In this document: in pieces, positions 8,975 to 36,857 of the stretch | Layout: each line of letters opens with the position of its first letter | Position numbering within the stretch: position 1 is the first letter of the stretch | Source of the DNA: a virus | Lineage: Duplodnaviria > Heunggongvirae > Uroviricota > Caudoviricetes | DNA: 38,121 nucleotides | Virus record (IMG/VR): IMGVR_UViG_2563366897_000009 | Reading direction: 5' to 3' (one strand) | Notes under the pieces: model-generated | Told to the model about the DNA's origin: nothing | The model's input: the letters and a program-made list of their open reading frames with translations, nothing else | The model's database searches: none | Translations under genes and position numbers: made by a program

Positions 8975-8978
8975 ACCA

Positions 8979-9293
8979 ATGACGACACCAACCAGACGGA
9001 TAAGTTTCTATCTGAAGCCCGCCGCCGTCAAGAGTGAACAGGAGGCGTGCAATTACCTCGATAGCCTGCCAGCCTCCGAACGCAGCCGCGCGCAACGCGC
9101 GGCCTTTCTGGCTGGGCTAGCGCTCATAAAGCGCAACCCAGCATTTGCCTACTGGATGGCCGAATGGCCAGAGGACAACCTCCCCTTCAATACCGTTAGC
9201 ATCAAGGAAACATACCAGGATAATCAGCCTAGCGGAGTTGAATGCAATTTTTATAAAATTGCAAAGAATATTCAGACCTTATTCCCAGAATAA
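8979..9293 (+). CDS. parR: ParR-like adaptor (ribbon-helix-helix)
   Basis: RRISFYLKP...LDSLPASERSRAQRAAFLAGLAL resembles the R1 ParR N-terminus as recalled; directly downstream of parM. Confidence 0.6.
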   Translation: MTTPTRRISFYLKPAAVKSEQEACNYLDSLPASERSRAQRAAFLAGLALIKRNPAFAYWMAEWPEDNLPFNTVSIKETYQDNQPSGVECNFYKIAKNIQTLFPE

Positions 9294-9376: not shown

Positions 9377-10219
9377 TCATGATGAAATTGCCGAAGTTTT
9401 TTTATCGTGCTGAAGTACCGCAAATGCCATTAAAACCTCAAGAGAATAGCGGCGATAATACTTAACAAAACCATAATAAAATACTCGGGATGCAGCAATA
9501 CAAAACAAGAGAAGAAAACAAAAAGGTAACAGTCTGATATTTATATCTATTAAAAAGGATAGAAGGAGCAGGAACATAAGCAACCAGACTGAAGCGAGAA
9601 AAACAAATGTAATGTTTCTACAAAAACCATACAAAGCAACATAGTTTTGCATTTTCACCTGATGATTTTTAGAATGTTCATACACATAATGATAAGCAAG
9701 GCGAAAAAGATCGCCCCTCAAGCCCTTACGTCGATATAGCGTAGATACAGAAAAAACATTTATATAACCATCTCGTATTTGCGGCCAAAAGACTTTAATA
9801 AGTATAGAATGCAGTGTGGTTTTATGATGTTCTGCTTTATCAAAAGCTGATACAGGAAATAAAAAAACTCCACGAATAAAATTAACTATACTGAACTTAG
9901 TATTATGTCGTTTTATTTTCAGGGAGCTTCTTTTAGAAAACAGATAAATTGAAGGATACCCAAGTTTACTGTTCATGTATTTTTCAATTAAACAGGATGA
10001 TAGAATAGATATGAAGTGACCTGAAATATATGATAGAACGATTAATACCACATATATAAATACACTTATTATTTCTTTATATTTCAGGATATGGTTAAGA
10101 ATACCTTCTATATAAACAGGGTTAATTTCAATAGAAAACAAAAAAAGGATAAACAGGAATAACCCACCTGGAATTAGATAGCCCAAAAAGTCATAAAATG
10201 AAAACGGATTCTGTGTCAC
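9377..10219 (-). CDS. multi-pass membrane protein of unknown function (hotspot cargo, second gene)
   Basis: 280 aa with about five hydrophobic segments; GTG start preceded by AGGGGGAAG; strongly AT-rich. Confidence 0.6.
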   Translation of the reverse strand: MTQNPFSFYDFLGYLIPGGLFLFILFLFSIEINPVYIEGILNHILKYKEIISVFIYVVLIVLSYISGHFISILSSCLIEKYMNSKLGYPSIYLFSKRSSLKIKRHNTKFSIVNFIRGVFLFPVSAFDKAEHHKTTLHSILIKVFWPQIRDGYINVFSVSTLYRRKGLRGDLFRLAYHYVYEHSKNHQVKMQNYVALYGFCRNITFVFLASVWLLMFLLLLSFLIDINIRLLPFCFLLLFCIAASRVFYYGFVKYYRRYSLEVLMAFAVLQHDKKTSAISS

Positions 10220-10258
10220 ACTTCCCCCTGTGTTACTTGTAAATTAAAGGGTAAAACA

Positions 10259-10756
10259 TTATTTGTTTTTCCGTAAAGGATTAGCTTTCCATCTTCTTAC
10301 TAACCATTCGAATTCTTGATATGTAGTATCCGAATTAATGCTTTCTCTGATTGCTTTAATTAATGGCTCGGCAATATCATATGTCTCTACAACTGTTGTG
10401 TAAGATGTTCTTTTTATCATTTTTTCATCATAAATACCTTCACGAATACTTACAGCAACTCGCTCGTAAAAATTTAAAATATATTGAAATTTTCGGCGCT
10501 CGGCCATTTCTTCATCTGTTATTATGCAACCATCACAAGGAAAAACATAAGAACGAAATGATTTGCCTGAACGATGCACTTGTTTCAGGGTATGCAATGA
10601 CTCTATATATTGCATATCTTGCCGACTCTCAAAAAGAAAGTTGGCCGTTTGAGTTTTTTTTGCGGTACGCACATTGTAGATAATGGTTCCAATGGCAACC
10701 AAAACGCCAAGCAGAACAATAGTATTGCTGATGATTTGTAGTGTTATTGGGTTCAT
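10259..10756 (-). CDS. single-pass membrane protein of unknown function (hotspot cargo, first gene)
   Basis: 165 aa; N-terminal transmembrane helix (residues about 5-27) followed by a charged soluble domain; AT-rich; 40 bp upstream of the 280-aa gene. Confidence 0.6.
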   Translation of the reverse strand: MNPITLQIISNTIVLLGVLVAIGTIIYNVRTAKKTQTANFLFESRQDMQYIESLHTLKQVHRSGKSFRSYVFPCDGCIITDEEMAERRKFQYILNFYERVAVSIREGIYDEKMIKRTSYTTVVETYDIAEPLIKAIRESINSDTTYQEFEWLVRRWKANPLRKNK

Positions 10757-14202: not shown

Positions 14203-14356
14203 TGCTCCCCCTGAGTAATTACAGGAAGATTACCCGCGCGCGAAACTGTTCTCCTTAACCCCCTGTTCTGGCCGTTTTCTTACAACAAAAGCCCTTTGTA
14301 TCAGCCTGTTACGCTTTGCCATCATGACTGAAGAACCAGTCAGAGGGGCAAAAACT
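14203..14356. promoter_or_regulatory. divergent late-promoter region between P and O
   Basis: Intergenic region between divergent late operons; TGT...ACA dyad-like elements are present but not verified. Confidence 0.3.
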
Positions 14357-17216: not shown

Positions 17217-17711
17217 ATGAGTATGGTTGCCAGAACCAACCCCGGCCCCGCAGAGGACGACATCACCGATACCGATGATGGTGATACCCGTATTTCAGCG
17301 GGCGCATTCTGGCCGGATATTGTGCTGCGTGAGCTGCGTCTGGCGATACGACTGCCGGGCCGTGTGACCACCTCCCGCCTGCTGCATACCGCCACCGGGG
17401 CCGTGGCACACGTTACCCGCGAGCTGGAAGCGTGGCAGCAGGAACAGCAGGCGGCTGGCCATCAGACGCTGGCCGATGTTCCGGCACCCGTAATTAACGG
17501 AGAAAGCGTCAATCTCTGGCACTGGCGCAATGCTGTTTATACCGCCACGCGCGCCCTGATTCTGGAGCGTTATCGTGATGCAGACACAACGGACAAGGGC
17601 GACCGCCGGGCGGACGCTCTGGATATACAGACATCGGATTTGTGGCGTGATGTGAGCTGGGCCATCTCTGACATTCTGTGCCGCCCGCGAATCTTTGCGG
17701 AGTTGTGCTGA
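17217..17711 (+). CDS. L: head completion / stabilisation protein
   Basis: Motifs AFWPDI, LADVPAPVINGESV and ERYRD...DTT.KGD match P2 gpL as recalled. Confidence 0.8.
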   Translation: MSMVARTNPGPAEDDITDTDDGDTRISAGAFWPDIVLRELRLAIRLPGRVTTSRLLHTATGAVAHVTRELEAWQQEQQAAGHQTLADVPAPVINGESVNLWHWRNAVYTATRALILERYRDADTTDKGDRRADALDIQTSDLWRDVSWAISDILCRPRIFAELC

Positions 17712-22613: not shown

Positions 22614-24038
22614 ATGAGTACCACAACACGAAAATTTAAAACCGTTATCACCGATACAGGTGCAAAAAAATTAGCTCAGGCAGCCGCGCCAGATGGTAAG
22701 CCTGTCCGCCTGACTCATATGGCCGTGGGCGACGGTGGCGGCACGTTGCCCACACCAGACAGTAAGCAGACCCGTCTGGTGCATGAGGTGTGGCGACACA
22801 CTGTTAATCGCGTCATCCTGGACGCAACACATCAGAACCGCATTATTGCGGAGCTGGTTATACCTCCTGAAACGGGCGGATTCTGGATCCGGGAAATTGG
22901 TGTATTTGATGAGCACGGCGATTTAATCGCGGTGGGCAATACTGCCGAAAGTTACAAGCCAACCGTTGCCGAGGGGTCCGGACGTGCACAAACATTTCGC
23001 ACCATTCTGACCGTATCCAGCACTGCCAGCGTGGCGCTTACCGTGGATAACACCATGGTGATGGCCACAGTGGATTACGTGGATGACAAACTGAAAGAGC
23101 ATGAACAGTCACGACGTCACCCGGATGCCTCGCTGACCGCAAAAGGCTTTGTTCAACTCAGTAGCGCCACTAACAGCGATTCTGAAACGCTGGCCGCAAC
23201 GCCGAAAGCGGTTAAGGCCGCGTATGACCTGGCTAACGGAAAATATACCGCTCAGGACGCCACGACGGCACGAAAAGGGATAGTCCAGCTCAGCAGTGCA
23301 ACCAACAGCACGTCTGAAACGCAGGCTGCAACGCCGAAAGCAGTAAAGGCGGCATATGACCTTGCTAACGCAAAATATACCGCTCAGGACGCAACGACGG
23401 CACGAAAAGGGATAGTTCAGCTCAGTAGCGCCACTAACAGCCCGTCTGAAACGCTGGCTGCGACACCAAAAGCGGTTAAGGCGGTAATGGATGAAACGAA
23501 CAAGAAAGCGCCTTTAAACAGTCCTGCGCTGACCGGAACGCCAACAACGCCAACTGCGCGACAGGGAACGAATAATACCCAAATCGCAAGCACGGCTTTC
23601 GTTATGGCTGCGATTGCCGCCCTTGTAGATTCGTCACCTGACGCACTGAATACGCTGAACAAGTTAGCGGCGGCGCTGGGAAACGACCCGAATTTTGCGA
23701 CCACCATGACTAACGCGCTTGCGGGTAAGCAACCGAAAGATGCCACCCTGACGGCGCTGGCCGGGCTTGCTACTGCGGCAGACAGGTTTCCGTATTTTAC
23801 GGGGAATGATGTCGCCAGCCTGGCAACCCTGACAAAAGTCGGGCGGGATATTCTTGCGAAATCGACCGTTGCTGCCGTTATCGAATACCTCGGTTTGCAG
23901 GAAACGGTAAATCTGGCTTCTGGCGCATTACAGAAAAACCAGAACGGCGCAGATATTCCGGGTAAAGATACCTTCACCAAAAACATTGGTGCCTGCCGCG
24001 AAGACGGCGCAGGGATGAAAAAAGGTATGGAGCATTAG
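22614..24038 (+). CDS. H: tail fibre protein H, conserved part plus a 44-aa tail after the crossover site; distal domain appears truncated
   Basis: 474 aa with three tandem 44-aa fibre repeats; the reading frame crosses the invertase site at 23878..23903 and stops at 24036. Confidence 0.75.
   Translation: MSTTTRKFKTVITDTGAKKLAQAAAPDGKPVRLTHMAVGDGGGTLPTPDSKQTRLVHEVWRHTVNRVILDATHQNRIIAELVIPPETGGFWIREIGVFDEHGDLIAVGNTAESYKPTVAEGSGRAQTFRTILTVSSTASVALTVDNTMVMATVDYVDDKLKEHEQSRRHPDASLTAKGFVQLSSATNSDSETLAATPKAVKAAYDLANGKYTAQDATTARKGIVQLSSATNSTSETQAATPKAVKAAYDLANAKYTAQDATTARKGIVQLSSATNSPSETLAATPKAVKAVMDETNKKAPLNSPALTGTPTTPTARQGTNNTQIASTAFVMAAIAALVDSSPDALNTLNKLAAALGNDPNFATTMTNALAGKQPKDATLTALAGLATAADRFPYFTGNDVASLATLTKVGRDILAKSTVAAVIEYLGLQETVNLASGALQKNQNGADIPGKDTFTKNIGACREDGAGMKKGMEH
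23878..23903. repeat. left crossover site for the Gin/Pin-type invertase (gix-like), inside H
   Basis: TTATCGAATACCTCGGTTTGCAGGAA is the inverted counterpart of the site at 27181..27206, differing at a few positions; both share the central TC/GA dinucleotide. Confidence 0.7.
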
Positions 24039-25142
24039 GTATGGACAGCGCCGCCATTTGCTGTTGGGCGGAAGAGTCATCGAGTTTTTAACCGTCGTTC
24101 CAGAAGGAGCACTGGCTCACGGGCTTCTGGAGTTATTATGGCGACTACAGCTACCGGTTGTGATTATACTAGGCTTAACTGTGAAGTGAATGAAGTGATA
24201 GGGACTGGTGGCGCAATGGCCCGTCGTGCTTATGCGGCAAGTACGTCTTCCGCGGGCCAGACTAATGAGCGCCAATTCCCCTATATTGTTCATGGCCATA
24301 AATAAGCTGATGTATGCAGAGTAGATTACGTCACGAGCAACCCGTTTCCTGTACTTGCTTTTGCGCAAAAAGGACTAACGGTCATTGATGAAAATGATGA
24401 TGATTCGATCGGTAATACCAGAGTTAATTATGCAGCAACCAGTCGCGCGTCAACATTCATGCTCCAACTAACTATTCAGGATGGGAACAACGCTCGAGTA
24501 CATTTCCGTGCGAACTCAATATACGGCATTAACTCTTTTCGTACCGCGAATCATGGGAATGGCTTTGCAAATGACTTGTCGGGGTTTTAAATAACAACCG
24601 GAGATACCTATGCGGGGTATATTCGAGCAGATGCTGGGGCGCAATGTACTTATAGTTTTGGTGCGGATGTACTCCTGGGTGGACATGGCTCTGCTCAGAC
24701 ATTAAATGGTATCGGCTCTGCTGAAAGGACGGTTTATGTAGTTTCGAGTGCAGATACCGGTACCCGTAATGAATCATTTAATTCGACGCGGGCTTCGTCA
24801 GTACCAAATTGCACTAATCGGAGGGATTATACAGCGGGGCGTATCTATAGACAGTGCACTTAAGATAACTTACTGACGTTAACCGTAAAACGAAAGAGCA
24901 AAACCAGCAACTGGAGCAACATAAAATCCAATGACGTTAAAGAGGGTAGGCATAGCACAGGGCAAAATAATGGAAGGAACTACTGGCAGACATTGAGCAA
25001 ACGGTGCCCTTCAATACCGGTATTATTTTTTGTAAAGGTTCGGGTGTTTGATCAAAACATCGGGAATGCTCTTGCGGGTTTGTATTACAGGCTAGTACAG
25101 CAAAACATAATGCGGACATGGCGTGTAGAAGGGTGCGTAAAA
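24039..25142 (+). pseudogene. forward-orientation tail-fibre variable arm broken by in-frame stops
   Basis: In the H reading frame only five stops occur across about 410 codons (at 24036, 24303, 24588, 24861, 25143); the translation is fibre-like and homologous to the opposite arm. Confidence 0.5.
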
Positions 25143-26241
25143 TAGGATGAGTGTAAAGAACATCTAAGCGCGAAAAAGAAAAAAGCCAGCACGCTAAAAG
25201 TGAAAAACAAAGCCTGGTATCACTCGGCTTTAATATGAACCAGCGATAGGCCGGTCAGATAAAGTTAAGAATTTTTTCCGAGGAAAATTAACAAATGTTA
25301 ACAGAGTGAATACTCTTTTTGCAGCTAGTCCAATATATGCACAAACGCAGCCTCCCGGTAATTTTTGCGGAGCTGAGGTAACTAGTAATAGCTTCATATC
25401 ACGTCCTGATGTTTACGGTGAATTGATTGGCCAGTCTGGCTCTGCCGTAACACCGAGTCAGACCGTAGATGAGTAGCGTTCACATGAATCAACACGTGAG
25501 GACTCGTTACCTTCCGCAGTAGTCAGCGTGATTGAGCGATTGAGTCGCTGTATAAGGCTGTCTATGTCGGCGAGTGAGGAATGCTCTTGACTTGCGTCCT
25601 GGGGTCGCTGTAGAGCTGTCGTCTAAAGCCGGTAAACGACAAAGCCATCATGGCCCCACAATCTACCTGAGTCGTCAGGGCGCCGGTTGGAGCTTATACC
25701 CGTTCTGGTAACACCGCTAAAACTATCGGCAGGCTGCGAGGAAGTATAGCTTCTAATTTCTACACTAATAGCATCCTCACCGTTAATATTCTTTTATTTG
25801 CGTCGGAAAAGGTGCCTCGCTTTCTCAGAGCAGTCCTTCCCTGCGTCTTATCAAAGACGAACTGTAGCATGCTTTTCTGTTAATTTTCCCTCTGCCAGCT
25901 TTTCACCGTTACCGGATTTTATCGCTTTTCAATGCCTCCTTCTATGAGCATCCAACATCCTGCCATGTGCGAATGGTATATTGTTGTAATAGCCGGTAAT
26001 TAAAAGCCGCTTGATTCTTGCGGAATAAGTAACCAGTCACCCTAATCAATACAACAGATAATACCTGTCTTGTCGTGCACCAGTAGCTCCGTGTTTGGCA
26101 GGTAATTATATTGTTCCTCAGATCAGATCTTAGCATCCTATCAATAACATATCTTGATTTAATGTTGTCCCGGTTGCTTGGATTTATCTGTTGTTTTAGG
26201 GCTGATAGCACTAAGGTTTCTGTAGTGCATCATCGATAGAA

Positions 26242-27180
26242 ACGCCCGGCTTTATACCACCTCCGATCAGCGCCAGATGGTCTTGACCAAGTTCCCCACG
26301 AGTCAATTGATTCATTACGGGTTCCGTTATTTGAACTTGTAACGGCATAACACTACCTGTCAGCACAGTCAATACCCTTCAATGATAGAGCAGAGCACTT
26401 TCTACACAGGCGTATATGCATAATATTACCAGAATTACATTGTGCCTCAGCATCAGTTTGAACATACCCCGTAGAGGTATCTCCGGAAGCGGTTGAATTC
26501 CCCGCCCGGTCAGTAGCAGAGCCAAAACCAAGATTTCCTCTAAAAATGGCATTAACACCGATCCTTGAATTAAAGCAATAATACCCACGAGCGCAGCTCC
26601 ACTCCTGAATGGCTAGGGCGTTGGTGCTTGCTGTTGCACGACTAATAGCTCCCCAATTAAATCCGGTTTGACAGTTCGTGTAATCCTGTGTAGGATTAAT
26701 GACCGTTCGCCCTTTTTGGGCTAAAACAAACGCAGGCAGAGCCTTGTTCGCGACGTAATAAAGGCTGCATCCAGGATCTTATTCATCGCTATTTTTAATA
26801 GAGTGGAATTCGGGCTCATTAATCTGGCCCGCCCAAAACTAACCTGCCGTAGATACGCGAAGGGTAGTCCAGCCGCCAGTGATAATCATTTCATCGACTG
26901 CACATGTATGAAAAGCATTATCACAACTGGCATATGTGGTGGCTATAATCACTGCATAAGCCCATGAGCCTTTGCTCCCTGAGTAAGGCTGGTTAATTGC
27001 TGCCTGCCACTCTCCACCAACAGTAAAATACGGCGCATTACAGACCTACCGATCCCTACCTTTATTCAGCCACACCCCGCATTCGCGGCAGGCACCAATG
27101 TTTTTGGGGAAGGTATCTTTACCCGGAATATCTGCGCCGTTCTGGTTTTTCTGTAATGCGCCAGAAGCCTGATTTACCGT
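26242..27180 (-). pseudogene. reverse-orientation tail-fibre variable arm broken by in-frame stops
   Basis: Read inward from the right crossover site the first 44 codons nearly repeat those after the left site, then a TAG; fibre-like sequence continues with further TAG/TAA/TGA stops. Confidence 0.5.
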
Positions 27181-27206
27181 TTCCTGTAAACCGAGGTTTT
27201 AGATAA
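27181..27206. repeat. right crossover site for the Gin/Pin-type invertase
   Basis: TTCCTGTAAACCGAGGTTTTAGATAA resembles gix/hix-type sites as recalled; lies 55 bp before the invertase start. Confidence 0.75.
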
Positions 27207-27260
27207 TGGCCGTTTCCGGCCTGCATGGCATGATTTGCGCTTTTGGACGGGAGATTCAGT

Positions 27261-27860
27261 GTGCTGATTGGTTATGTAAGGGTATCAACAAATGACCAGA
27301 ATACAGGCCTGCAACGAAACGCTCTTGTTTGTGCAGGATGTGAACAAATATTTGAAGATAAATTAAGCGGGACAAAGACAGACCGACCGGGATTAAAACG
27401 CGCTTTAAAGCGGCTTCAAAAAGGTGACACGCTGGTTGTCTGGAAACTGGATCGCCTTGGGCGAAGCATGAAACATCTGATTTCTCTCGTCGGAGAACTA
27501 CGGGAGCGAGGGATTAATTTTCGCAGTCTGACCGACAGCATAGATACATCTTCTCCAATGGGGCGTTTTTTCTTCCACGTGATGGGTGCCCTGGCTGAAA
27601 TGGAACGTGAATTAATTGTTGAACGTACACTGGCCGGACTGGCGGCAGCGCGCGCACGGGGGCGCACAGGCGGACGTCGCCCGAAGCTGACAAAAGAACA
27701 GCATGAGCAAATAGCAAGGCTGATCAAAAACGGTCATGACAGGAAACAACTGGCGATCATTTACGGCATCGGCATATCGACGATTTATCGTTATCACCCT
27801 GTAGGCGATATACAGGCTGAAGAAACAACCTGGCAGACTCAGGAAAATGAAAACCGCTAA
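27261..27860 (+). CDS. serine DNA invertase (Pin/Gin/Hin/Cin family)
   Basis: VLIGYVRVSTNDQNTGLQRNAL...VWKLDRLGRS is close to e14 Pin as recalled; GTG start with a GGGAG ribosome-binding site. Confidence 0.85.
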   Translation: MLIGYVRVSTNDQNTGLQRNALVCAGCEQIFEDKLSGTKTDRPGLKRALKRLQKGDTLVVWKLDRLGRSMKHLISLVGELRERGINFRSLTDSIDTSSPMGRFFFHVMGALAEMERELIVERTLAGLAAARARGRTGGRRPKLTKEQHEQIARLIKNGHDRKQLAIIYGIGISTIYRYHPVGDIQAEETTWQTQENENR

Positions 27861-27880
27861 TCTGACCATTAGCGGTTTTG
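27853..27880. terminator. hairpin terminator shared by convergent invertase and U
   Basis: 9-bp perfect stem ACCGCTAAT / ATTAGCGGT followed by TTTT; overlaps the invertase stop codon. Confidence 0.5.
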
Positions 27881-27886
27881 CGTTAA

Positions 27887-28381
27887 TCAAAACAGCCCTT
27901 TAACGGAGCTGGCCGCGCTGTTAAGGGATGATGTGACCTTATCTTTGAAGCCGGACAGCATATCACTGAACGATGAGGATTGCAGGCGCTCCCGCAAATC
28001 CTCATCACAGCGTTCAAGGGTCAGTGAAAATTCTATCTTTTTCGCCTTACCGTAGCGATCAAACTCGGAACGGGTCGTATTCGTTCCGGTCAGGACATAC
28101 ATGCCGTAAATCTGCCCGACGCCATCAATCAAAGGCCAGGGTCGTCCTGTATACGCCTGCGTGGTCAGCAGCGACAGCGACACTTCGCCACCTGTAATTT
28201 CAGGATAAAGCACACCAGAAAGAACGATGCGATCATCACCTGCACCGATATACTGCCAGCTTGCTGAACGGTTAACGCGTTCATTTTTCACATGCCGCCA
28301 GCTTTTGTTTTGCTGTAACTGCTGATGCGGCAGCGTGCGCAGCTCAAAAACAAACATGCCGTAGATCATCATCATGGCCAT
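27887..28381 (-). CDS. U: tail protein U
   Basis: 164 aa directly downstream of T on the minus strand; size and position match P2 gpU. Confidence 0.7.
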   Translation of the reverse strand: MAMMMIYGMFVFELRTLPHQQLQQNKSWRHVKNERVNRSASWQYIGAGDDRIVLSGVLYPEITGGEVSLSLLTTQAYTGRPWPLIDGVGQIYGMYVLTGTNTTRSEFDRYGKAKKIEFSLTLERCDEDLRERLQSSSFSDMLSGFKDKVTSSLNSAASSVKGLF

Positions 28382-28387
28382 GACTCC

Positions 28388-31231
28388 TCAATCTTTATCG
28401 TAAAAACTGCCACGCCAGGCACGGGCGCGCCGTTCCATTTCTGCCCTGACCATTTCACCGACCAGTTTCGCCAGTTCGCGGGGATTCTGCGTAACAACGT
28501 TATGCAGATGAACATGAATTTCACCACCAAATCCGGAGGCAACAGGCTCCCGGTTACGGGAAGTTACAGGAACTGATGCCACTGGAGATCGTATAGCCTC
28601 CGCCACCGGGCGGGAGCTGGCCGCAACAACAGGGACCAGCGCCGGAGGCAGCGGAGCCGGGAGCACGGGTGTGATATTAATTGCGGGGGCAGGCTTACTG
28701 GCCTGCGCAATCTTCCGCTCCTGCCACTCCCCACGAACAGCAAGTGCGCGGGGCAGGTTCTTAAAGACAATATCGCCGGGGCCAATGCGTTTTTTCGTCT
28801 CATCAACCAGCTTACCTGTGTTATCAGCAATTTTGCTGAGTCTGCGTAGTGTACCGGTATTGCTGTCTGTGAGCGGTTTGTTGTCTTTGGGTTTATCACC
28901 TCCGGTGCCATTGCCATTTTCCACAGGCTTCGGCGGATTGATTTTCGCCAGGTCCCCCTGAAGCAAGGCAACCTTGTCCTGAAGAATGGCCGCACGCTGT
29001 GCGTCTTCGATTTTCTTTCTCGCCCTTTCCGCTTCATCCGGAAGAACACCGAGTTTTTCAAGTATCCACGCCAGCGTATCCAGCAACATTTTTGCAGGCG
29101 TCAGAACAAGCTGTAACGCGCCACCAAGAACGTTACCGAATATCTCGCCAGCACTGGTACATTTATCCAGCGTTTCCTTGCTGGACTCCATCGGTGACAG
29201 CAGCGATTTAAACCAGTTAAACACCTGGCTGATCCCGCTTCCGATTGCGTCAAAAACAGGACCAAACTGTTCAAAGGTTTCGCGCAACGGGATCAGCCTT
29301 TCCATAATCCCGCTGAACACCCCGGCAAAAAATGCCCTGATGGGATCCCAGTATTTCCAGATAAGAACGGCAGCTCCGGCAAGCGCAGCCACGATAAGAC
29401 CAACCGGACTGAACAGCGCCCCGATAGCACCTCCCAGCAAAGAAACGGAACCCGTCACCATTCCCCATAGTGCTGGCAGGACCCTGACAGCATTCATTGA
29501 TCCGGTCAGGAGAGAAAAACCAAGACGCAGTTTTGCCAGCGGGCCAGCAAGCACACCAATAGCCAGCGACAACGAGCCAACCGTTGCAGTCATTGCCAGC
29601 AACGCACCGCCTGCTATCAGTAGCTGGCGCGTCAGTGTCGGATGGGCCTGCGCCAGCGCCGTCACCCTTGATACCACCCGTGTGAGCCACTGCGTGACAG
29701 AACGCAGCGGACCGTCAATCAGATCTGCAATGCGGATGCGCAACCCTTCCCATGCACTGCCGAGTGATTTCAGATCGCCGTCAAGGTTGTTGGCCATAAC
29801 CTTTGCTGTGCGTTCAGCCTCACCGCGTGCGCCTTCAAGTTCTTTTCTCAGTTTAGGTAAGGAACCGTCACCCGCTGCATCAACGAGCGCCATAAACGAT
29901 GTGAAAGCCTCTTCTCCGGCAATGTCCTTAAAGAACGATACCCGGTCAACTTCCCCGTATTTGCGGGTGGCTTTATAAAGGTCGGCCAGCACATCCTCCA
30001 TCGGGCGCATTTTGCCGTTCGCGTCAGAGACTGCCACACCAAGCTCTTTCAGCGCCTCTGCTGCCGCCTTTGGCGGTGATGCCAGACGAGCCAGGCTGGC
30101 ACGCATTGCCGTCCCGGCATCACTTCCCCTGATACCCATATTCGCCAGCACGCCTGCTATCGCTGCGGCCTGCTCCAGCGATATTCCCAGCTTACCCGCC
30201 ACCGGACCTGCATATTTCATGGTTTCGCCCAGTGCGCGAAGGTCAGTGTTGGTACGGGTAAACGCTGCGGTGAGCGTGTCACCGACCCGGTCCATCTGGT
30301 CGGCAGAAAGGCCGAACTGCGTCAGGATGTTTGAGCCAATATCCGCCGTCTCGCCGAGATCCATACCGCCAGCCGTTGCCATGCTCAGTACACCGGGAAG
30401 CGCAGCCTGAATGGCCTGTGGTGTGAAGCCAGCCATTGCAAGAAATGCCTGTCCACTGGCGGCATCTCCAGCGGTGAACTGCGTTTCAGAGCCAAGTTTT
30501 AACGCCTGCTCACGCAGCGCCTTAAACTGCGGGCTGTTTTTGTCGATTCGCGTCAGTGCCTGAACGCGGGACATCTCTTTGCCGAACCCGATCGCAGGCT
30601 GCAAAAAACGCCCGGCAGCATAGCCGCCAGCCGCTGCAGCACCAATTGCCAGCGCACCACCTGTTTTCAGTTTTCCCGCTGTTTCCTGCACGCGCGAATA
30701 CCGCTCACGCGCCCGCGTTACACGCGCAAGCGCCTGCCGTTCGCGTTCAAGCTGGTTGTTGTACTGTTCGGTGCGTCTGATGGCCTGCTGGATGGTGTTA
30801 TCGCTGCCTGTCAGGGAAATGCCGTGGCGTTTCAGCTCTCCGCCAAGTTCCCGCATTTTCTGAATTTCCCGTGTGCGCGATTCATTCAGGCGTTCAAGCC
30901 GGGTGCTTAACTGCTGCATCAGCTTTTGTTGTTTTTCGCTGAGCACTGTACCCGTGCGTTGTAACTGATTAAGGGCGTTAAGCTGGCGTCGTGCTTTCAC
31001 GATACCCGCATCCGCTTTACTGACAGCGTCGCGGGCGCGCTCAAATGAACGCGCCTGACGCTCGAGATTTTTGATCGCCCCCTGCGTTCGCTGGATGGAG
31101 TCACCAAACTGCCTCATCAGGCGGCGGGCGTTTTCGGCAGGCCGGGTCAGCCTGTCAACGGCGCTGAAAGCGACCCGGATATCAAGAGTCTTCATTGTCT
31201 GCATTCCCGCTGCGAAGTGCCGCCCGCTCAC
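28388..31231 (-). CDS. T: tail tape measure protein; start uncertain (GTG 31231, ATG 31204 or ATG 31195)
   Basis: 947 aa, Ala/Gly-rich with coiled-coil and hydrophobic segments. Confidence 0.8.
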   Translation of the reverse strand: MSGRHFAAGMQTMKTLDIRVAFSAVDRLTRPAENARRLMRQFGDSIQRTQGAIKNLERQARSFERARDAVSKADAGIVKARRQLNALNQLQRTGTVLSEKQQKLMQQLSTRLERLNESRTREIQKMRELGGELKRHGISLTGSDNTIQQAIRRTEQYNNQLERERQALARVTRARERYSRVQETAGKLKTGGALAIGAAAAGGYAAGRFLQPAIGFGKEMSRVQALTRIDKNSPQFKALREQALKLGSETQFTAGDAASGQAFLAMAGFTPQAIQAALPGVLSMATAGGMDLGETADIGSNILTQFGLSADQMDRVGDTLTAAFTRTNTDLRALGETMKYAGPVAGKLGISLEQAAAIAGVLANMGIRGSDAGTAMRASLARLASPPKAAAEALKELGVAVSDANGKMRPMEDVLADLYKATRKYGEVDRVSFFKDIAGEEAFTSFMALVDAAGDGSLPKLRKELEGARGEAERTAKVMANNLDGDLKSLGSAWEGLRIRIADLIDGPLRSVTQWLTRVVSRVTALAQAHPTLTRQLLIAGGALLAMTATVGSLSLAIGVLAGPLAKLRLGFSLLTGSMNAVRVLPALWGMVTGSVSLLGGAIGALFSPVGLIVAALAGAAVLIWKYWDPIRAFFAGVFSGIMERLIPLRETFEQFGPVFDAIGSGISQVFNWFKSLLSPMESSKETLDKCTSAGEIFGNVLGGALQLVLTPAKMLLDTLAWILEKLGVLPDEAERARKKIEDAQRAAILQDKVALLQGDLAKINPPKPVENGNGTGGDKPKDNKPLTDSNTGTLRRLSKIADNTGKLVDETKKRIGPGDIVFKNLPRALAVRGEWQERKIAQASKPAPAINITPVLPAPLPPALVPVVAASSRPVAEAIRSPVASVPVTSRNREPVASGFGGEIHVHLHNVVTQNPRELAKLVGEMVRAEMERRARAWRGSFYDKD

Positions 31232-31711
31232 GCCAGCTAACCACTTCGCCGGGCGTCATCATGAAGATTTCGGCGGGCGACCAGTTAAAAATGGCGGCAA
31301 TATCCGCCACAAAGTCTTCTATGTACTCAAAGCACACAACCGTGATCAGGCTTCCGTCGCCTGTTCGTTCTTCCCGCCAGAGTCCGCACCGCTCAAAAAA
31401 TTTACGGCAACCACACATAACTGAATAAAGTCACGGGATGCCATTTTTTTGATCGTCACTTCATCCAGTCGCGGTGATGTCACGCGTGACAGCAGCGTAA
31501 ACATGGATTCCGCTTTCAGATTCAGCACATCAGACAGCGACAAATCTCGCAGAGATCCAGCCTGCTCAATAGCTCCGGTAATCTCCACATACGTGATTTT
31601 TTCGCCGCCTCGCTCAATTGGTTGGGTAAGTTTTACGCCACGCTCACTGGTTTCTTTCACAGTGTCAGCAACGACCGTGTTTTCGTTATCGATGTTTTTC
31701 GTCTCTTTCAT
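31182..31711 (-). CDS. tail assembly chaperone E+E' (product of a programmed -1 frameshift)
   Basis: The 31182..31418 ORF is in the -1 frame relative to E; the canonical P2 slippery heptamer TTTTTTG is at 31394..31400 on the minus strand. Confidence 0.6.
31346..31711 (-). CDS. E: tail assembly chaperone E
   Basis: 121-aa ORF between FII and T. Confidence 0.7.
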   Translation of the reverse strand: MKETKNIDNENTVVADTVKETSERGVKLTQPIERGGEKITYVEITGAIEQAGSLRDLSLSDVLNLKAESMFTLLSRVTSPRLDEVTIKKMASRDFIQLCVVAVNFLSGADSGGKNEQATEA

Positions 31712-31765
31712 CAGGAAACTCCTTTCAATCAGAGGCGACGCACTGCGCCGCCTGCATATTACTTA

Positions 31766-32278
31766 TCAGCCAAGCCTAAGCGCGGAACGGATGCGATCGG
31801 GCACAATGTCCTTGCCGTCCTTCCGGTAAATGAAGTTCAGCAGGTCAATCTCCCACAACGGGCGATCGTTAACACTCAGCTTGTAGTAGGTGTTTTTAAT
31901 GGCGTAAGTGTGTGATGTGGCTTCGCCCTGTTTGGCTTCCCCCATATCAATTTCCGTCACACGTCCGCGCATTTCGACTTCATACAGGTCGCTTTCTGCA
32001 TCGGTGTAGTATTCACCCGCAAAACGCAGCAGCGTGCCGTCAATCGTGCCGCCATACTTAAGGAACAGCTCACGAACTGCGCCCCCCATGACAAAGCTCG
32101 CATCAAGCGCGGAGTCGTCCAGACCGAGATCAATACTTACCGCACCCATCATGCCGCCCCCCCGGTAGCTGTCGGTTTTGCGCGTCAGTTTGGGCAGAGT
32201 GACGGACGTCACCTTACCCACTTCGTTTTCACCATCCACAAACAGCGTAAAAAAGCGAAGATGTTTTGGCACAGCCAT
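31766..32278 (-). CDS. FII: tail tube protein FII
   Basis: 170 aa directly after FI; size and position match P2 gpFII. Confidence 0.8.
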   Translation of the reverse strand: MAVPKHLRFFTLFVDGENEVGKVTSVTLPKLTRKTDSYRGGGMMGAVSIDLGLDDSALDASFVMGGAVRELFLKYGGTIDGTLLRFAGEYYTDAESDLYEVEMRGRVTEIDMGEAKQGEATSHTYAIKNTYYKLSVNDRPLWEIDLLNFIYRKDGKDIVPDRIRSALRLG

Positions 32279-33462
32279 CAGGCACCTCCCAGCACCGCAA
32301 ATGCGGGTTCAAAGTATTCATCAGTAAACGTCTGGTAAAGCTCCATGTCTTCCAGTGGCGGAACGGGCGTATATTTGTAGCGAATACGCACACGTCCCTG
32401 ACGTAAATCCGTGGTGCTGTTATCCACCACGTCATACCAGCACTCCGCGCCAATCAGTTTCCCGGCAGTAACCAGTGAATCCAGTTTTGCCCTGATGGCA
32501 CTGATAACATCCTTCACGTTCGCAGGCGTCAGTGGACTGTCGATGGTTTCAAACTGCGCTTCTGCAATTGAATCAGCCAGCACCTGTGCGGTTCGGGTAT
32601 ACACCTCAAAGATGTAGGCGTTCGTTTCCGGTGTGCGGTTGCCCCAGAAGCGGAACCCGTTGCGACGAATAATGGTCGTGATTTCTTTGTTGTTGAGGCT
32701 GTTGGCATCGCTGTCTTCGGCCTGCAACGACCAGAACACATGCCTCGACATCCCCAGCACATTTTTAACCGGAACGTTGGACAGTGATTTGTGCCATCCC
32801 TGCTCATGGTCAATGTACGCACGAAGGCCGCACGCATAGGCAGGCGCGGGGAACGTTTCGTTTTTGCCACTTTTCGGGTTGTAGGCGATGAAGTCCGGCC
32901 ATAAGAGCATCACCTCACGTTCGTTGAATTTCTGGCGGTAGGTAATCGCCTCAGCCATCGTGTTACAGCCGTGACATGAGGCATACACAAACGCGCGCAG
33001 TTTACCCGCAATCACGCACAGGGATTTTGTTACCGCCTCCGTGTCCAGCTCCGGCGCGGCCAGAATACGCGGACGGTATCCGATGCTTTCATCCTGCTCT
33101 GCAACAAGCAGCGCATACATCCCCGTATAGCTGCCGTCAGATTCAGAACCACCGATAACCAGTTGATCCTGCGTCTTTCCGTCTTCTTCTTTGTGTTCAG
33201 CCACGCGAACGACGATCACCTTTGTGCTCACCTGGTCTGCAATGGCCTTAAGCGCACGATAAAGCGTCCCCGTTGTCCCGCATTTTCCCAGCACGTCATT
33301 GACGCGGGTCAGCAGTGTGGGCTTGTTCAGCGGGAACAGCTTCGCGTCCGCATCATCCGCCGTTGCCACGATACCGATAACGCTGGAATCAACATCGTTA
33401 ATCGCTGTTACCAGGTCGGTATTTTCCGTAACACGGGCACCATGAAAACGAGTTTCACTCAT
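32278..33462 (-). CDS. FI: contractile tail sheath protein FI
   Basis: 394 aa; conserved blocks shared with P2 gpFI as recalled (DQEQGWHKTLSNV, GFRFWGNRT, YTRTAQV, YTPVPPLE). Confidence 0.85.
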   Translation of the reverse strand: MSETRFHGARVTENTDLVTAINDVDSSVIGIVATADDADAKLFPLNKPTLLTRVNDVLGKCGTTGTLYRALKAIADQVSTKVIVVRVAEHKEEDGKTQDQLVIGGSESDGSYTGMYALLVAEQDESIGYRPRILAAPELDTEAVTKSLCVIAGKLRAFVYASCHGCNTMAEAITYRQKFNEREVMLLWPDFIAYNPKSGKNETFPAPAYACGLRAYIDHEQGWHKSLSNVPVKNVLGMSRHVFWSLQAEDSDANSLNNKEITTIIRRNGFRFWGNRTPETNAYIFEVYTRTAQVLADSIAEAQFETIDSPLTPANVKDVISAIRAKLDSLVTAGKLIGAECWYDVVDNSTTDLRQGRVRIRYKYTPVPPLEDMELYQTFTDEYFEPAFAVLGGA

Positions 33463-33619
33463 AGCTTCAGCCCCTTGTATCCGTTAAATGATTCGGCAAC
33501 AATCATCACCCACCACGCGCGTAATCTCACCCCTGCGCCGTTCTCCCGACCCGGCGACAACAAAAAGCAGTAACCCCCTCCGCACGCACATGCGACCATG
33601 CCGCACAGGGAGGGAACAG
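33463..33619. promoter_or_regulatory. divergent promoter region between FI (minus) and D (plus)
   Basis: 157-bp gap between two divergently oriented late genes; one boundary of the inverted tail block. Confidence 0.3.
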
Positions 33620-34729
33620 ATGACCGACACCACCATGCAATTGCTCAGTCAGGGCACAGACCCCGTGAAAATGCCGGATTTTGATATTCTCGCGGAGGGT
33701 AAAACGCTGTCAGGCGTGGCAGAGCGCCTGATGAGCCTGTCACTGACCGACAACCGGGGATTTGAGGCGGACCAGCTCACCATCATGCTGGATGATGCAG
33801 ATGGTCAGTTGCAGCTACCGCCACGGGGCGCGCACCTGACGGTTCTCATTGGCTGGAAAGGAGAACCGCTGACAGAAAAAGGCACTTACATTGTTGATGA
33901 AATCGCTCACGAAGGACCGCCGGACAGGCTGACTGTTTCAGCCAGAAGCGCAGATTTTCGGGATGAATTTAACGTTAAACGTGAGGTGTCCTGGCATGAT
34001 GTGACCATTGAGCGTGTGGTATCCGCCATCGCTCATCGGTATGGTCTGAAACCGCAAATCAGCGAAATGCTGATGGATATCGAAATCGACCACGCCGACC
34101 AGACCGAAGAAAGCGACATGTCCTTCCTTACGCGCATGGCGGAAATGCTGGGCGCAATCACCACGGTAAAAAGCGGTAATCTGTTATTCATTATGCCAGG
34201 CGGTGGCGTGAACGCACAGGGCCAGCCGTTGCCATCGTTCGCCATCACGCGCAGCAGTGGCGATCGCCATCAGTTCCGCATTGCTGACCGCGAGGCGTAT
34301 ACGGGGGTACGCGCTTACTGGCTTGATCTTAATTACGGGAAAAAGAAAAAAGTCAGCGTGAAACGCCGCAAACCGCCAAAACCCAAAAAGGAGAAAAGCA
34401 GCAGCCGTGAAGGTGATTATATGGAAGGCGCGGAAGGCAATGTGTTTGTGTTACGCAAGACTTATCAGAACGAGCAGGCAGCAAGACGCGCAGCGGCGGC
34501 AAAGTGGCAGCAGCTACAACGCGAAGCCGCATCATTCTCCATCACGCTGGCACGTGGTCGTGCAGAACTCTACCCCGAAATGCATGGCACGGTAACAGGA
34601 TTTAAAAGCGAGATTGATAATCAGGACTGGATTATTGCAAAAGCCGAGCACACCATCGATAACAGCGGCTTTACCACGCAGCTTGAGCTTGAGGCAAAAA
34701 TCCCGGAATGGATAGCAGAAACAGAGTGA
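33620..34729 (+). CDS. D: tail protein D (late control gene D family)
   Basis: 369 aa immediately upstream of ogr; GGAGGG ribosome-binding site. Confidence 0.7.
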   Translation: MTDTTMQLLSQGTDPVKMPDFDILAEGKTLSGVAERLMSLSLTDNRGFEADQLTIMLDDADGQLQLPPRGAHLTVLIGWKGEPLTEKGTYIVDEIAHEGPPDRLTVSARSADFRDEFNVKREVSWHDVTIERVVSAIAHRYGLKPQISEMLMDIEIDHADQTEESDMSFLTRMAEMLGAITTVKSGNLLFIMPGGGVNAQGQPLPSFAITRSSGDRHQFRIADREAYTGVRAYWLDLNYGKKKKVSVKRRKPPKPKKEKSSSREGDYMEGAEGNVFVLRKTYQNEQAARRAAAAKWQQLQREAASFSITLARGRAELYPEMHGTVTGFKSEIDNQDWIIAKAEHTIDNSGFTTQLELEAKIPEWIAETE

Positions 34730-34771: not shown

Positions 34772-35032
34772 ATGTTCCGTTGTCCGCTTTGTGGCGCATC
34801 TGCCCGTATCCGCACCAGTCGTCCGGAAAATGATTCAAACACCGTGCGGCAAAAGTATTACCAGTGTAACAACCTGGAATGCGGCGTATGCTTCTCAACA
34901 CTGGAAGCTTTCCATAAATTCACATCAAAACACGCCTCCGGTGTTCACTCTTCAGAAGGTATCCCGTGGCATGAGCTGCCAGCTTCACACAGGGGAAACA
35001 ATCAGATGAGTTTGCCTTTATCTCAGAATTAA
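34772..35032 (+). CDS. ogr: Ogr/Delta zinc-finger late-gene activator
   Basis: MFRCPLCGASARIRTSR...YYQCNNLECGVCFSTLEAF matches the Ogr Cys4 pattern; AGGGAGG ribosome-binding site. Confidence 0.85.
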   Translation: MFRCPLCGASARIRTSRPENDSNTVRQKYYQCNNLECGVCFSTLEAFHKFTSKHASGVHSSEGIPWHELPASHRGNNQMSLPLSQN

Positions 35033-35223: not shown

Positions 35224-35364
35224 ATGTCGCAAAAATCGCTTACGGCCATCACGTTCTGCGTGACGGTAATCCTCATCATCTGGATGCTGCACGGTTCGCT
35301 GTGTGAAATACGGATGAGCTTTTGGGGAGCGGAGTTTGCGGCGTTCTTACAGTGTAAGCAGTAA
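35224..35364 (+). CDS. Hok/Gef-family type I toxin (46 aa)
   Basis: MSQKSLTAITFCVTVILIIWMLHGSLCEIR...EFAAFLQCKQ: transmembrane helix then the SLCEIR and AAFL signature; AAAGGAG ribosome-binding site; below the ORF-track cutoff. Confidence 0.65.
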   Translation: MSQKSLTAITFCVTVILIIWMLHGSLCEIRMSFWGAEFAAFLQCKQ

Positions 35365-35382
35365 GGAAACCGCGACGGGGGA

Positions 35383-35404
35383 GTAATCCCCCGTCAATCG
35401 GTTG
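35383..35404 (+). terminator. hairpin at the 3' end of the hok-like mRNA
   Basis: GACGGGGGA-GTAAT-CCCCCGTC: 8-bp GC-rich stem just downstream of the toxin stop. Confidence 0.4.
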
Positions 35405-35626
35405 CTAGGGTAAGGTCGATAAGGCACCCTATCTCACAGCTCTAAATGCAAAAATTCCATGAAACTGTGGGATTTTTGCATCACATACTGATACAGACCA
35501 GCCCTTCTATATGCCTCACTCTATACCAGCTAATCAATTGACACTTATCAATAAAAATAAATCTGATAAAATCAAAATGTTTTGTAACAAATATCAACTC
35601 GTATTAATCCAAAGGAGGCGGATTAC

Positions 35627-35959
35627 ATGGCATTAATCAAATGTCCTGAATGCCAGAAAGAGGTGAGCGATTCAGCATTGTATTGCCCTGCTTGTGGTAA
35701 ACAACTGCAAAAACTTAAGCGTTCATTTTTTGGACGGATCATTAAGTGGGTTTTTATATTATTTAATATTTTTATGATCTATACGCTTTTAGTTGGAATA
35801 GGAGGCACTAGTGAAATAATAAATAATGCCACATCCGATGCCGAAAAAGCCGGTGCAGTTATTGGTACAGGCTTAGGTTTAATTACCATTGGAAGCTTAT
35901 GGGTTATTGGCGATATCATTATCGGAATTTTAGTATTTCTTACTAAACCAAAGGGATAA
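35627..35959 (+). CDS. zinc-ribbon membrane protein (cargo)
   Basis: 110 aa; N-terminal CPEC...CPAC zinc ribbon followed by two hydrophobic helices; AAGGAGG ribosome-binding site; AT-rich. Confidence 0.6.
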   Translation: MALIKCPECQKEVSDSALYCPACGKQLQKLKRSFFGRIIKWVFILFNIFMIYTLLVGIGGTSEIINNATSDAEKAGAVIGTGLGLITIGSLWVIGDIIIGILVFLTKPKG

Positions 35960-35963
35960 TAAA

Positions 35964-36857
35964 ATGAAAAATATAATTTTTTCTATAGGTGCATCATTTA
36001 TATCAATTAGTGTACTGCCTGTTCACGCAGCAACTGAACATAAGAACTTCAATGCAGTACTTCAGTGCCGAGCAATAGAAAATAATAAAGACAGACTTTC
36101 TTGTTACGATAAGTCAATACAACCGACTCGAACGAAAGTTGCTGAAAAATTCGAAAGCAGAGATCAATGCCCTGATGAGAAAGATGATGATAGACGTTTA
36201 TCTTGTTATGATCGTTTCTTTTCTCCAACATTTACTCCATCTGTAAACTCAAAATCTAAAACGGAAAAGCCAGTAACAACAGAGGCTCAGCAACCAAATC
36301 TTTCTGAGATATCTAAATGTCGTGCAGAAAATGATAAAGAAGCCAGACTAAACTGCTACGATAAACTATTCCCACAGGATAAAATCGCTCAAGCTGAATC
36401 AAAATTAGAGAAAGCCACAGATGTAGGAAAATGGCACACATCCATTACTACATCGCCAATTGATGATTCGAAAAATGTAATTTTATCGTTAGAAAGTGAT
36501 GATTATATCAGAACTCCATTTGGAGAAGCGGTTACTCCTACTCTTTTTATAGCTTGCCGAGAAAAGAAAACCGAAGTATTTCTTAGTTGGGATGTATATT
36601 TAGGCCTTGAACAAACCAGCATGCTTTATCGCCTTGATAAACAGAAAGCAGTTGAGCGAAACTGGCTAGTATCTACAGATACAAAGGCTGTTTTTTATAA
36701 AGGTAATGACATTGATTTCATCCGAAAACTAGCCAACTCAAGCAAAATGTATACAAAAATAACGCCTTATAATGAGAGCCCCGTAAGTGCAACTTTCAAT
36801 TTAAACGGCCTGTCAAACGCGCTAAAACCGCTTCAAGCTGCTTGTAACTGGAAATAG
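35964..36857 (+). CDS. secreted or periplasmic Cys-repeat protein (cargo)
   Basis: 297 aa; signal peptide ending VHA-A; three roughly 45-aa repeats each ending RLSCYD(K/R); AT-rich. Confidence 0.6.
   Translation: MKNIIFSIGASFISISVLPVHAATEHKNFNAVLQCRAIENNKDRLSCYDKSIQPTRTKVAEKFESRDQCPDEKDDDRRLSCYDRFFSPTFTPSVNSKSKTEKPVTTEAQQPNLSEISKCRAENDKEARLNCYDKLFPQDKIAQAESKLEKATDVGKWHTSITTSPIDDSKNVILSLESDDYIRTPFGEAVTPTLFIACREKKTEVFLSWDVYLGLEQTSMLYRLDKQKAVERNWLVSTDTKAVFYKGNDIDFIRKLANSSKMYTKITPYNESPVSATFNLNGLSNALKPLQAACNWK

Follow-up and report, generated by a model that had tools for sequence, protein, structure and literature searches.

In bacteriophage P2, the tail genes FI-FII-E-E'-T-U-D form an F operon codirectional with the tail-fibre gene H, in which D comes last, its start overlapping U. 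P2's own record places H, FI through U, D and ogr on one strand, as a sequence-only reading of the locus described here had stated. At the P2 promoter pF, the -10 hexamer (GAAAAT) lies 45-50 nt from the centre of an activator dyad, and the start has been mapped to 17626-28. For the divergent promoters pP and pO, the same record gives a single activator site, at 55.5 nt from both mapped starts. We compared these systems with a stretch of 38,121 nucleotides from a Caudoviricetes record (IMGVR_UViG_2563366897_000009), the whole of which we call the window. There, sheath, tube, the E/E' chaperone pair, tape measure and U stand in P2 order on one strand, the minus strand (27887-33462), whereas H, a DNA invertase gene, D and ogr are on the plus strand. 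D is not the final gene overlapping the end of U but lies on the opposite strand, divergent from FI. Pfam identities and strands thus bear out the sequence-only reading, which had FI through U inverted relative to H, D and ogr. We consider it very likely that a subclade of P2-like phages (Peduoviridae) has inherited this layout as its standard architecture and that the prophage in the window did not acquire it on its own.

The features of the locus are collected in Table 1. The 121-amino acid ORF at 31346-31711 on the minus strand has no match in Pfam; it was named E because the -1-frame ORF at 31182-31337 is annotated as GpE family and because a P2-like TTTTTTG heptamer is present. The heptamer is in frame with E, and the same heptamer occurs at the annotated frameshift site of P2. 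Like P2, the tail block is therefore predicted to use a programmed -1 frameshift from E into E' at a T-rich heptamer. During these comparisons we noted errors in public annotation, namely in the FI start of Reipivirus, in the D start of KSP20 and in a truncated D in one RefSeq genome.

Table 1. Features of the tail block, its flanks and the compared sites (window positions)
Feature	Position	Strand	Remarks
P/O divergent spacer, matching activator dyad (comparison)	14267..14284		TAATCT -10 toward P at 44-49 nt
H N-terminus, tail fibre	22614-24038	+	Pfam
True left gix-type recombination site	23878..23903	+	3 mismatches to Mu-type gix query; none expected by chance
True right gix-type site, inverted vs left	27181..27206	-	1 mismatch to gix query; 23/26 identical to left site
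Serine DNA invertase (Gin/Hin type), convergent with U	27261..27860 (annotated start; Pfam ORF 27243-27860)	+	Pfam Resolvase 7e-50 and HTH_7; RefSeq start
Predicted bidirectional intrinsic terminator hairpin, invertase gene and FI-U operon	27850..27879		12-bp stem, A-run before, T-run after
"Degenerate gix-like" 26-mer of the sequence-only reading	27883..27908	+	overlaps last codons of U
U, tail protein, last gene of leftward F operon	27887..28375	-	RefSeq coordinates; Pfam Phage_P2_GpU 1.5e-38 (27887-28381)
T, tape measure	28388..31195	-	RefSeq coordinates; Pfam PhageMin_Tail 1.8e-58 (28388-31231)
E and E+E'	31182..31711 (E = 31346-31711; E' = -1-frame ORF to 31182)	-	TTTTTTG slippery heptamer 31400->31394
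FII, tail tube	31766..32278	-	Pfam Phage_tube 5e-46
FI, tail sheath, first gene of leftward operon	32278..33462	-	Pfam sheath domains
Predicted -10 of leftward PF, GATGAT	33502..33507	-	44-49 nt from dyad centre; predicted start ~33495
P2-type late-activator (Ogr) dyad, TCT-N12-ACA in GTTCTC-N10-GACAAC	33542..33559, centre 33550.5		proposed for PF and PD
Predicted -10 of rightward PD, GACCAT	33594..33599	+	44-49 nt from dyad centre; predicted start ~33606
D, baseplate hub / late control D	33620..34729 (Pfam Phage_GPD ORF 33488/33620-34729)	+	start as in NR1430 RefSeq and P88; GGGAGGG Shine-Dalgarno
ogr-type late activator	34772..35032	+	Pfam Ogr_Delta 5e-14

Because the FI-U block is inverted, D is cut off from the F operon and requires a separate promoter. 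The sequence-only reading was right on this point, and a candidate promoter lies in the FI-D spacer. This spacer (157 bp) holds one P2-type activator dyad, which emerged only once the FI/D spacer was set against the P/O spacer and both against KSP20 and SEN5. The exact TGT-N12-ACA dyad occurs at none of the late-gene spacers of the window; the FI/D dyad matches it at five of six bases, with the mismatch in one half (TCT, not TGT), and one imperfect half is also found in the annotated activator sites of P2 itself. Only two places in the window match the motif GTTCT-N12-ACAACAAAA perfectly: this site and the dyad of the P/O spacer. In KSP20 and SEN5, perfect TGT-N12-ACA dyads occupy the same place in the FI/D spacer, and Reipivirus has TCT-N12-ACAACAAAAAG there after correction of its FI start. 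The distance from dyad centre to FI ATG is 88.5 nt in the window and 81.5-88.5 nt across the lineages, as against 82.5 nt in P2. The window also encodes a cognate activator, an Ogr_Delta zinc-finger protein.

All four lineages carry, on either side of the dyad, a hexamer of the form xAxxAT at exactly 44-49 nt from its centre, a conservation that is not fully independent evidence because the lineages share ancestry. On the PF side the counterparts of the window's hexamer at this offset are GAATAT in KSP20 and Reipivirus and AATGAT in SEN5; on the PD side they are AATCAT in Reipivirus, AACCAT in KSP20 and GACGAT in SEN5. A scan for the sigma-70 consensus gave no match in the FI/D spacer and no -35, which is uninformative, being the outcome to be expected of an activator-dependent promoter that lacks a -35. 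On these grounds, FI through U would be transcribed leftward from PF and D rightward from a separate promoter, PD, with the activity of both promoters and their dependence on Ogr predicted from motif and spacing. Both would use the single dyad-symmetric Ogr-type site, ~55 nt upstream of each start, so that one site probably serves two late units as a bidirectional promoter.

D might instead be independent of Ogr. An ordinary promoter, constitutive or early, would then drive it from within FI or from the spacer, where TAATCT at 33522-33527 is one candidate, and the dyad would be left to PF only. The spacer sequence CGCGCGTAATCT does resemble the sequence around the -10 of the P promoter in the window, and the leader predicted for PD is unusually short (only ~14 nt). 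We nevertheless regard this arrangement as unlikely: the TAATCT block is not kept in Reipivirus, KSP20 or SEN5, the D-side hexamer recurs at its fixed offset in every lineage, and in P2, D belongs to the late structural genes. The bidirectional site offers a simple account of how D remains under late control after its separation, and the design of P2 pP/pO, one site for two promoters, seems to be used again in the FI/D spacer. At the other end of the block, the FI-U transcript is proposed to end at a bidirectional hairpin shared with the convergent invertase gene. This hairpin has a predicted stability of -23.9 kcal/mol (z = -3.3) and is kept in P88 and PhiR44_2.

The inverted layout is also present in P88, PhiSM, PhiR44_2, Salmonella SEN5, Klebsiella Reipivirus and Serratia KSP20. 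Plaques are formed by P88 and PhiSM, both of them functional phages (PMC6456863), and by PhiR44_2. Because these six share the orientation, synteny contradicts the view that the block in the window had undergone a secondary inversion by the resident invertase; a conserved predicted promoter architecture also lies between FI and D. Among complete E. coli genomes, the 7.9-kb stretch from invertase and U through FI, D and ogr is collinear in 1107 of 5426; the FI/D junction has some match in 1377 and is unbroken in 1358 of these, with no second orientation of FI-U seen among them. FI of the window is 46-49% identical to its counterparts in the canonically ordered P2, Pseudomonas phiCTX and Klebsiella ST437-OXA245phi4.1, versus 56-71% for the inverted-layout relatives. 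In sampled tblastn rows, wherever the position of D was checked, FI matches of 56-71% identity were divergent from D and those of at most 49.4% were canonical. This split between divergent and canonical FI sequences fits one old event. As a discovery the layout counts for little: deposited genomes of isolated phages already show it, and so do about a fifth of complete E. coli genomes. We found no description of the arrangement or its promoters in the literature on P88, PhiSM, SEN4/5, KSP20 and Xuanwuvirus. Its bearing is on the choice of reference: P2 gene order is unsuited to serve for all P2-like prophages, since in one enterobacterial subclade the inverted FI-U is the normal state.

We propose that the FI-FII-E/E'-T-U operon was inverted along with its late promoter in the ancestor of this subclade, which would comprise the Xuanwuvirus/P88-like, Reipivirus, Senquatrovirus and KSP20-like phages. 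D would have been stranded on the far side of the dyad-symmetric site of PF, turning one Ogr site into a bidirectional switch.

The sequence-only reading had suggested another origin, an invertase-mediated secondary inversion. On this view, the resident invertase would have flipped FI-U, either recently or within this very prophage, through recombination between the gix-like 26-mer overlapping the end of U and a second site at the opposite boundary. Its description of the 26-mer was accurate as to position, sequence, overlap with U and score, which is 16/26 against the right true site (14/26 against the left); the significance attached to it was not. Eleven other positions in the window score at least 16/26, and composition-matched simulated sequences give 10.1 +/- 3.2. 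The score at this position falls to 14/26 in P88 and PhiR44_2, relatives of 95-97% identity, to 12/26 in Reipivirus and to 13/26 in the canonically ordered P2 and SopEPhi. The central dinucleotide is GC, versus TC in both true sites; in Hin/Gin recombination, non-identical core dinucleotides give no stable recombinants. The 26-mer thus lacks an above-chance match, a core shared with its partner and an inverted partner at the other breakpoint, and by these measures it is a chance resemblance. A second 16/26 match (33462-33487, opposite strand), adjoining the FI start, was considered as the partner and rejected. It overlaps the FI ribosome-binding site and lies within the moved unit, between FI and the PF activator site; a crossover there would split FI from PF, but the P2-like distance between them is kept, and it is therefore not the breakpoint. 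Scored against the true sites, neither junction yields a credible recombination site. The invertase gene does adjoin one boundary of the block, but its cassette is 88-91% identical in nucleotide sequence to the gin regions of Mu and D108, and judged by this identity it is mobile and much younger than the FI-U inversion. The layout, moreover, is common to lineages only 56-71% identical in FI, some of them without any invertase, and more than 1100 complete E. coli genomes have it as a fixed arrangement, with no sign of orientation polymorphism. We therefore judge a recent inversion by the resident invertase very improbable.

An invertase could also have acted much earlier, founding the clade by an inversion at secondary sites that have since decayed, with its gene then directly upstream of FI. 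In the canonically ordered SopEPhi a fragment of an invertase lies directly upstream of FI, SopEPhi and Fels-2 today show the position proposed for the ancestor, and in the window the invertase stands directly beside the end of U, so that it is found by one presumed breakpoint in both layouts. No recognisable recombination site remains at either FI-U boundary, however, and the cassette is far younger than the inversion. Invertase is absent from the examined stretches of Reipivirus, KSP20 and SEN5, that is, from three of the four inverted-layout lineages. In PhiR44_2 the invertase has been lost but the last ~100 nt of its gene and the terminator remain, which makes this phage a weaker invertase-free example because the remnant shows secondary loss. 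Ordinary illegitimate or repeat-mediated recombination would account for the inversion equally well, and we hold an ancient role for a serine invertase to be improbable, if somewhat less so than a recent one. When inverted and canonical phages were aligned at the N-terminus of D and the C-terminus of U to look for breakpoint scars, both ends proved variable in all of them. Mis-orientation of the block during assembly, which the sequence-only reading had raised, has nothing found in its favour and a negligible probability; it is refuted by the collinearity of both junctions in 1107 complete genomes as well as in phage genomes that were sequenced independently. An old inversion inherited by the whole subclade remains the reading that we prefer.

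The window nevertheless contains a genuine switch of the Gin/Hin/Cin/Pin type (as in the Mu G segment), with two inverted 26-bp sites and an adjacent invertase. The FI-U block lies outside it, with no credible site at its boundaries, and the resident invertase is expected to act on only the two true sites flanking the tail-fibre segment. Within this invertible segment, positions 24001-27151 differ by 35% random-looking substitutions from a genome that is identical elsewhere; these are very probably not biological.

The closest relatives of the locus are P88 (Xuanwuvirus) and Citrobacter phage PhiSM (Shae_phiSM), with 95-99% nucleotide identity over invertase, U through FI, D and ogr. Order, orientation, the 157-bp FI/D spacer and the terminator are identical to those of the window; the tail-fibre alleles and cargo genes differ, and the invertible segment of the window is corrupted by substitutions. 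Identity of 95-99% to P88, P884B11, PhiSM, 500465-2 and PhiR44_2 places the window among the P88-like phages (Xuanwuvirus), and the stretch of invertase, tail block, D and ogr is 100% identical to that of E. coli AH21F008 and NR1430. With the P2 F operon the window shares genes, internal order and the TTTTTTG frameshift site, as well as an activator dyad ~83-88 nt upstream of the FI ATG and a -10-like hexamer at 44-50 nt from its centre; it differs in that FI-U is inverted and D forms a separate, divergent unit. In geometry the FI/D spacer resembles P2 pP/pO, where a single dyad sits midway between divergent late units, ~55 nt from each start. The P2 site serves the packaging and head operons, whereas that of the window is proposed, from its sequence, to serve FI-U and D.

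The window holds a P2-like prophage that runs from int at its left end to ogr, cargo genes and host flk at its right. Pfam assignments agreed with the gene calls of the sequence-only reading, and the inversion of the FI-U tail block relative to H, D and ogr was borne out: in the P2 record H, FI to U, D and ogr share a single strand and the start of D overlaps the end of U, whereas in the window FI-U is flipped relative to D. A Pfam search with E gave no match; the E region carries a slippery heptamer, TTTTTTG, from 31400 to 31394, identical to the P2 heptamer at the annotated frameshift site. The leftward operon ends in a hairpin that is common to FI-U and the convergent invertase gene. Cargo of low GC (38-41%) occupies 35224-36857, between ogr and flk, and the early region (8015-9293 and 9377-10756) includes genes annotated for ParM-type plasmid segregation and for plasmid partitioning/stability, together with an adjoining minus-strand cargo pair of low GC (34-39%) that encodes one hypothetical and one DUF4760 protein.

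Coordinates of features in the window
Feature	Coordinates	Strand	Basis or remark
GTTCT-N12-ACAACAAAA, match 1	14265-14290		P/O spacer
H N-terminus	22614-24038	+	Pfam
True fibre-switch site, left	23878-23903	+	
True fibre-switch site, right	27181-27206	-	
Invertase, resolvase-type	27243/27261-27860	+	Pfam
Hairpin	27850-27879		12-bp stem, A-run 5', T-run 3', -23.9 kcal/mol
U	27887-28381	-	Pfam
T, tape measure	28388-31231	-	Pfam
GpE family protein	reaching 31182		annotated; -1-frame ORF overlapping end of E
E	31346-31711	-	
FII, tube	31766-32278	-	Pfam
FI, sheath	32278-33462	-	Pfam
D	33488/33620-34729	+	Pfam
GTTCT-N12-ACAACAAAA, match 2	33540-33565		FI/D spacer
ogr	34772-35032	+	Pfam
hok/gef-type toxin ORF	35224-35364		
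Zinc-ribbon protein	35627-35959		
Protein annotated TagO-like	35964-36857		

The layout is not peculiar to this prophage. The region spanning the invertase to ogr gave a single collinear match to a set of phages at 95-97% identity, and U to FI lie on one strand, with H and D on the other, in the records of P88, PhiR44_2 and Serratia phage KSP20. Klebsiella phage ST16-OXA48phi5.4 (Reipivirus), which has a DUF262 cargo gene between its fibre genes and U, and Salmonella phage SEN5 (Senquatrovirus) show the same inverted layout without an invertase. Both P88 and PhiSM function as temperate phages, forming plaques and lysogens (PMC6456863). Among complete E. coli genomes, 1107 of 5426 carry a 7.9-kb stretch with both junctions in collinear form, which excludes an assembly artefact; of the 1377 that matched the FI/D junction at all, 1358 had it unbroken, and no second orientation of the block was found among the E. 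coli genomes compared. SopEPhi (Felsduovirus) differs in retaining the P2 order and has an invertase fragment immediately upstream of FI. In sampled tblastn matches, FI homologs at 56-71% identity were divergent from D where its position could be checked (SEN5, Klebsiella Kp48xx), whereas those at or below 49.4% had the canonical order where checkable (Klebsiella ST437-OXA245phi4.1 and ST11-OXA245phi3.1, P2, 9W, Mannheimia 1152AP). This pattern fits a single old inversion in an enterobacterial subclade, for which the P2 order would be ancestral.

As had been proposed, D in this position requires its own promoter, and the FI/D spacer contains a candidate activator dyad and -10-like hexamers. 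The motif GTTCT-N12-ACAACAAAA, which matches perfectly at just two places in the window, includes a P2-type dyad, TCT-N12-ACA, inside GTTCTC-N10-GACAAC, and matching dyads are present in the FI/D spacers of KSP20, SEN5 and Reipivirus. Hexamers of the form xAxxAT stand at an identical offset from the dyad centre, on both sides, in every lineage compared.

Activator dyads and -10-like hexamers (distances in nt from the dyad or site centre)
Genome	Dyad	To FI ATG	To D ATG	Hexamer toward FI	Hexamer toward D	Hexamer distance
Window	TCT-N12-ACA	88.5	69.5	GATGAT	GACCAT	44-49
KSP20	GTTGTC-N10-GACAAC, perfect	83.5	68.5	GAATAT	AACCAT	44-49
SEN5	TGT-N12-ACA, perfect	81.5	76.5	AATGAT	GACGAT	44-49
Reipivirus, FI start corrected	TCT-N12-ACAACAAAAAG	85.5	69.5	GAATAT	AATCAT	44-49
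P2 pF, start mapped	annotated activator site	82.5	not applicable	GAAAAT		45-50

The P2 record annotates one activator site for the divergent promoters pP and pO, centred at 3071.5 and 55.5 nt from each of the mapped starts (3016 and 3127); for pF, the centre of the site is 17569.5 and the starts are 17626-28. In the window, transcription toward FI (from PF) and toward D (from PD) is predicted to start at about 33495 and 33606, respectively. PF and its dyad would have been inverted together with FI, and D would then have come to lie beyond a symmetric site able to act in both directions. A bidirectional activator site shared by PF and PD is our best reading of sequence and comparison, and the spacer can be likened to the pP/pO pair, with the two divergent promoters here being predicted ones. 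The 3' end of gene L, which precedes X and the lysis genes, contains a further late-activator-like dyad of the window, GTTGTG-N10-GATAAC (17569-17590; one mismatch per strand); it may mark an additional late promoter or have arisen by chance. Several public records misplace starts around this spacer: the spacer of Reipivirus is hidden by 42 surplus codons in the annotated FI (error at L003 11545-11671), and the KSP20 D is annotated from an upstream start, overlapping FI (error at L004 3783-4059). In RefSeq, D of the E. coli AH21F008 prophage is split into an 801-nt gene and a pseudogene (error at L008 3393-4246); its sequence is that of the 1110-nt D annotated in NR1430.

The sequence-only reading suggested that a degenerate gix-like 26-mer at 27883-27908 would fit a secondary inversion mediated by the invertase. 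The 26-mer reads as quoted there and matches the two true sites at 16 and 14 of 26 positions, but scores of 16 or 17 occur at 11 further positions in the window, against 10.1 +/- 3.2 expected from composition-matched simulated sequences. Its central dinucleotide is GC, versus TC in both true sites, and in Hin/Gin recombination a mismatched central dinucleotide prevents productive exchange. The score is not kept at the equivalent position in relatives (14/26 in P88 and PhiR44_2, 12/26 in Reipivirus, 13/26 in the canonical P2 and SopEPhi), and the 26-mer spans the final seven codons of U plus a small hairpin. Its resemblance to gix sites does not hold up. A possible partner in inverted orientation, 33462-33487 on the minus strand, is a chance-level 16/26 match at the FI start codon, overlapping the FI ribosome-binding site and lying between FI and its own activator site; because a crossover there would part FI from its promoter, yet P2-like spacing is kept, we regard it as coincidence. 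The invertase cassette has 88-91% identity to the Mu and D108 gin regions, whereas tail genes of the inverted-layout lineages share only ~66-69% DNA identity with each other, so the cassette is far younger than the inversion. The analysis does not support an invertase-made inversion; the switch at the fibre genes is truly of Gin type, and FI-U takes no part in it. PhiR44_2 has neither invertase nor invertible segment, but ~100 nt from the 3' end of the invertase gene survive there with the shared terminator (L002, 5835-6095; 90% identity), and the phage thus lost the switch by deletion.

Outside 24001-27151 the window is nearly identical to the AH21F008 prophage, with few SNPs and one 1-nt indel. 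Within this part of the invertible segment 1108 of 3151 positions (35.2%) differ, with zero indels, about equal frequencies of the twelve substitution types, geometric spacing and an even spread over codon positions 1, 2 and 3 in all four original genes. Stop codons occur throughout every reading frame, no ORF survives and H seems truncated at 24038; in AH21F008 the segment has the C-terminus of H intact, along with two fibre-assembly genes and an alternative C-terminus for the fibre. This pattern is unlike natural divergence, and is most likely non-biological, random substitution introduced outside the organism.

We found no paper commenting on the inverted FI-U arrangement; annotated phage genomes with this layout have plainly already been deposited. 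The window's prophage is P88-like (Xuanwuvirus-type), and its FI-U inversion, correctly observed, is an ordinary lineage trait. Apart from the detachment of D, the gene set corresponds to a P2 F operon in all respects tested.
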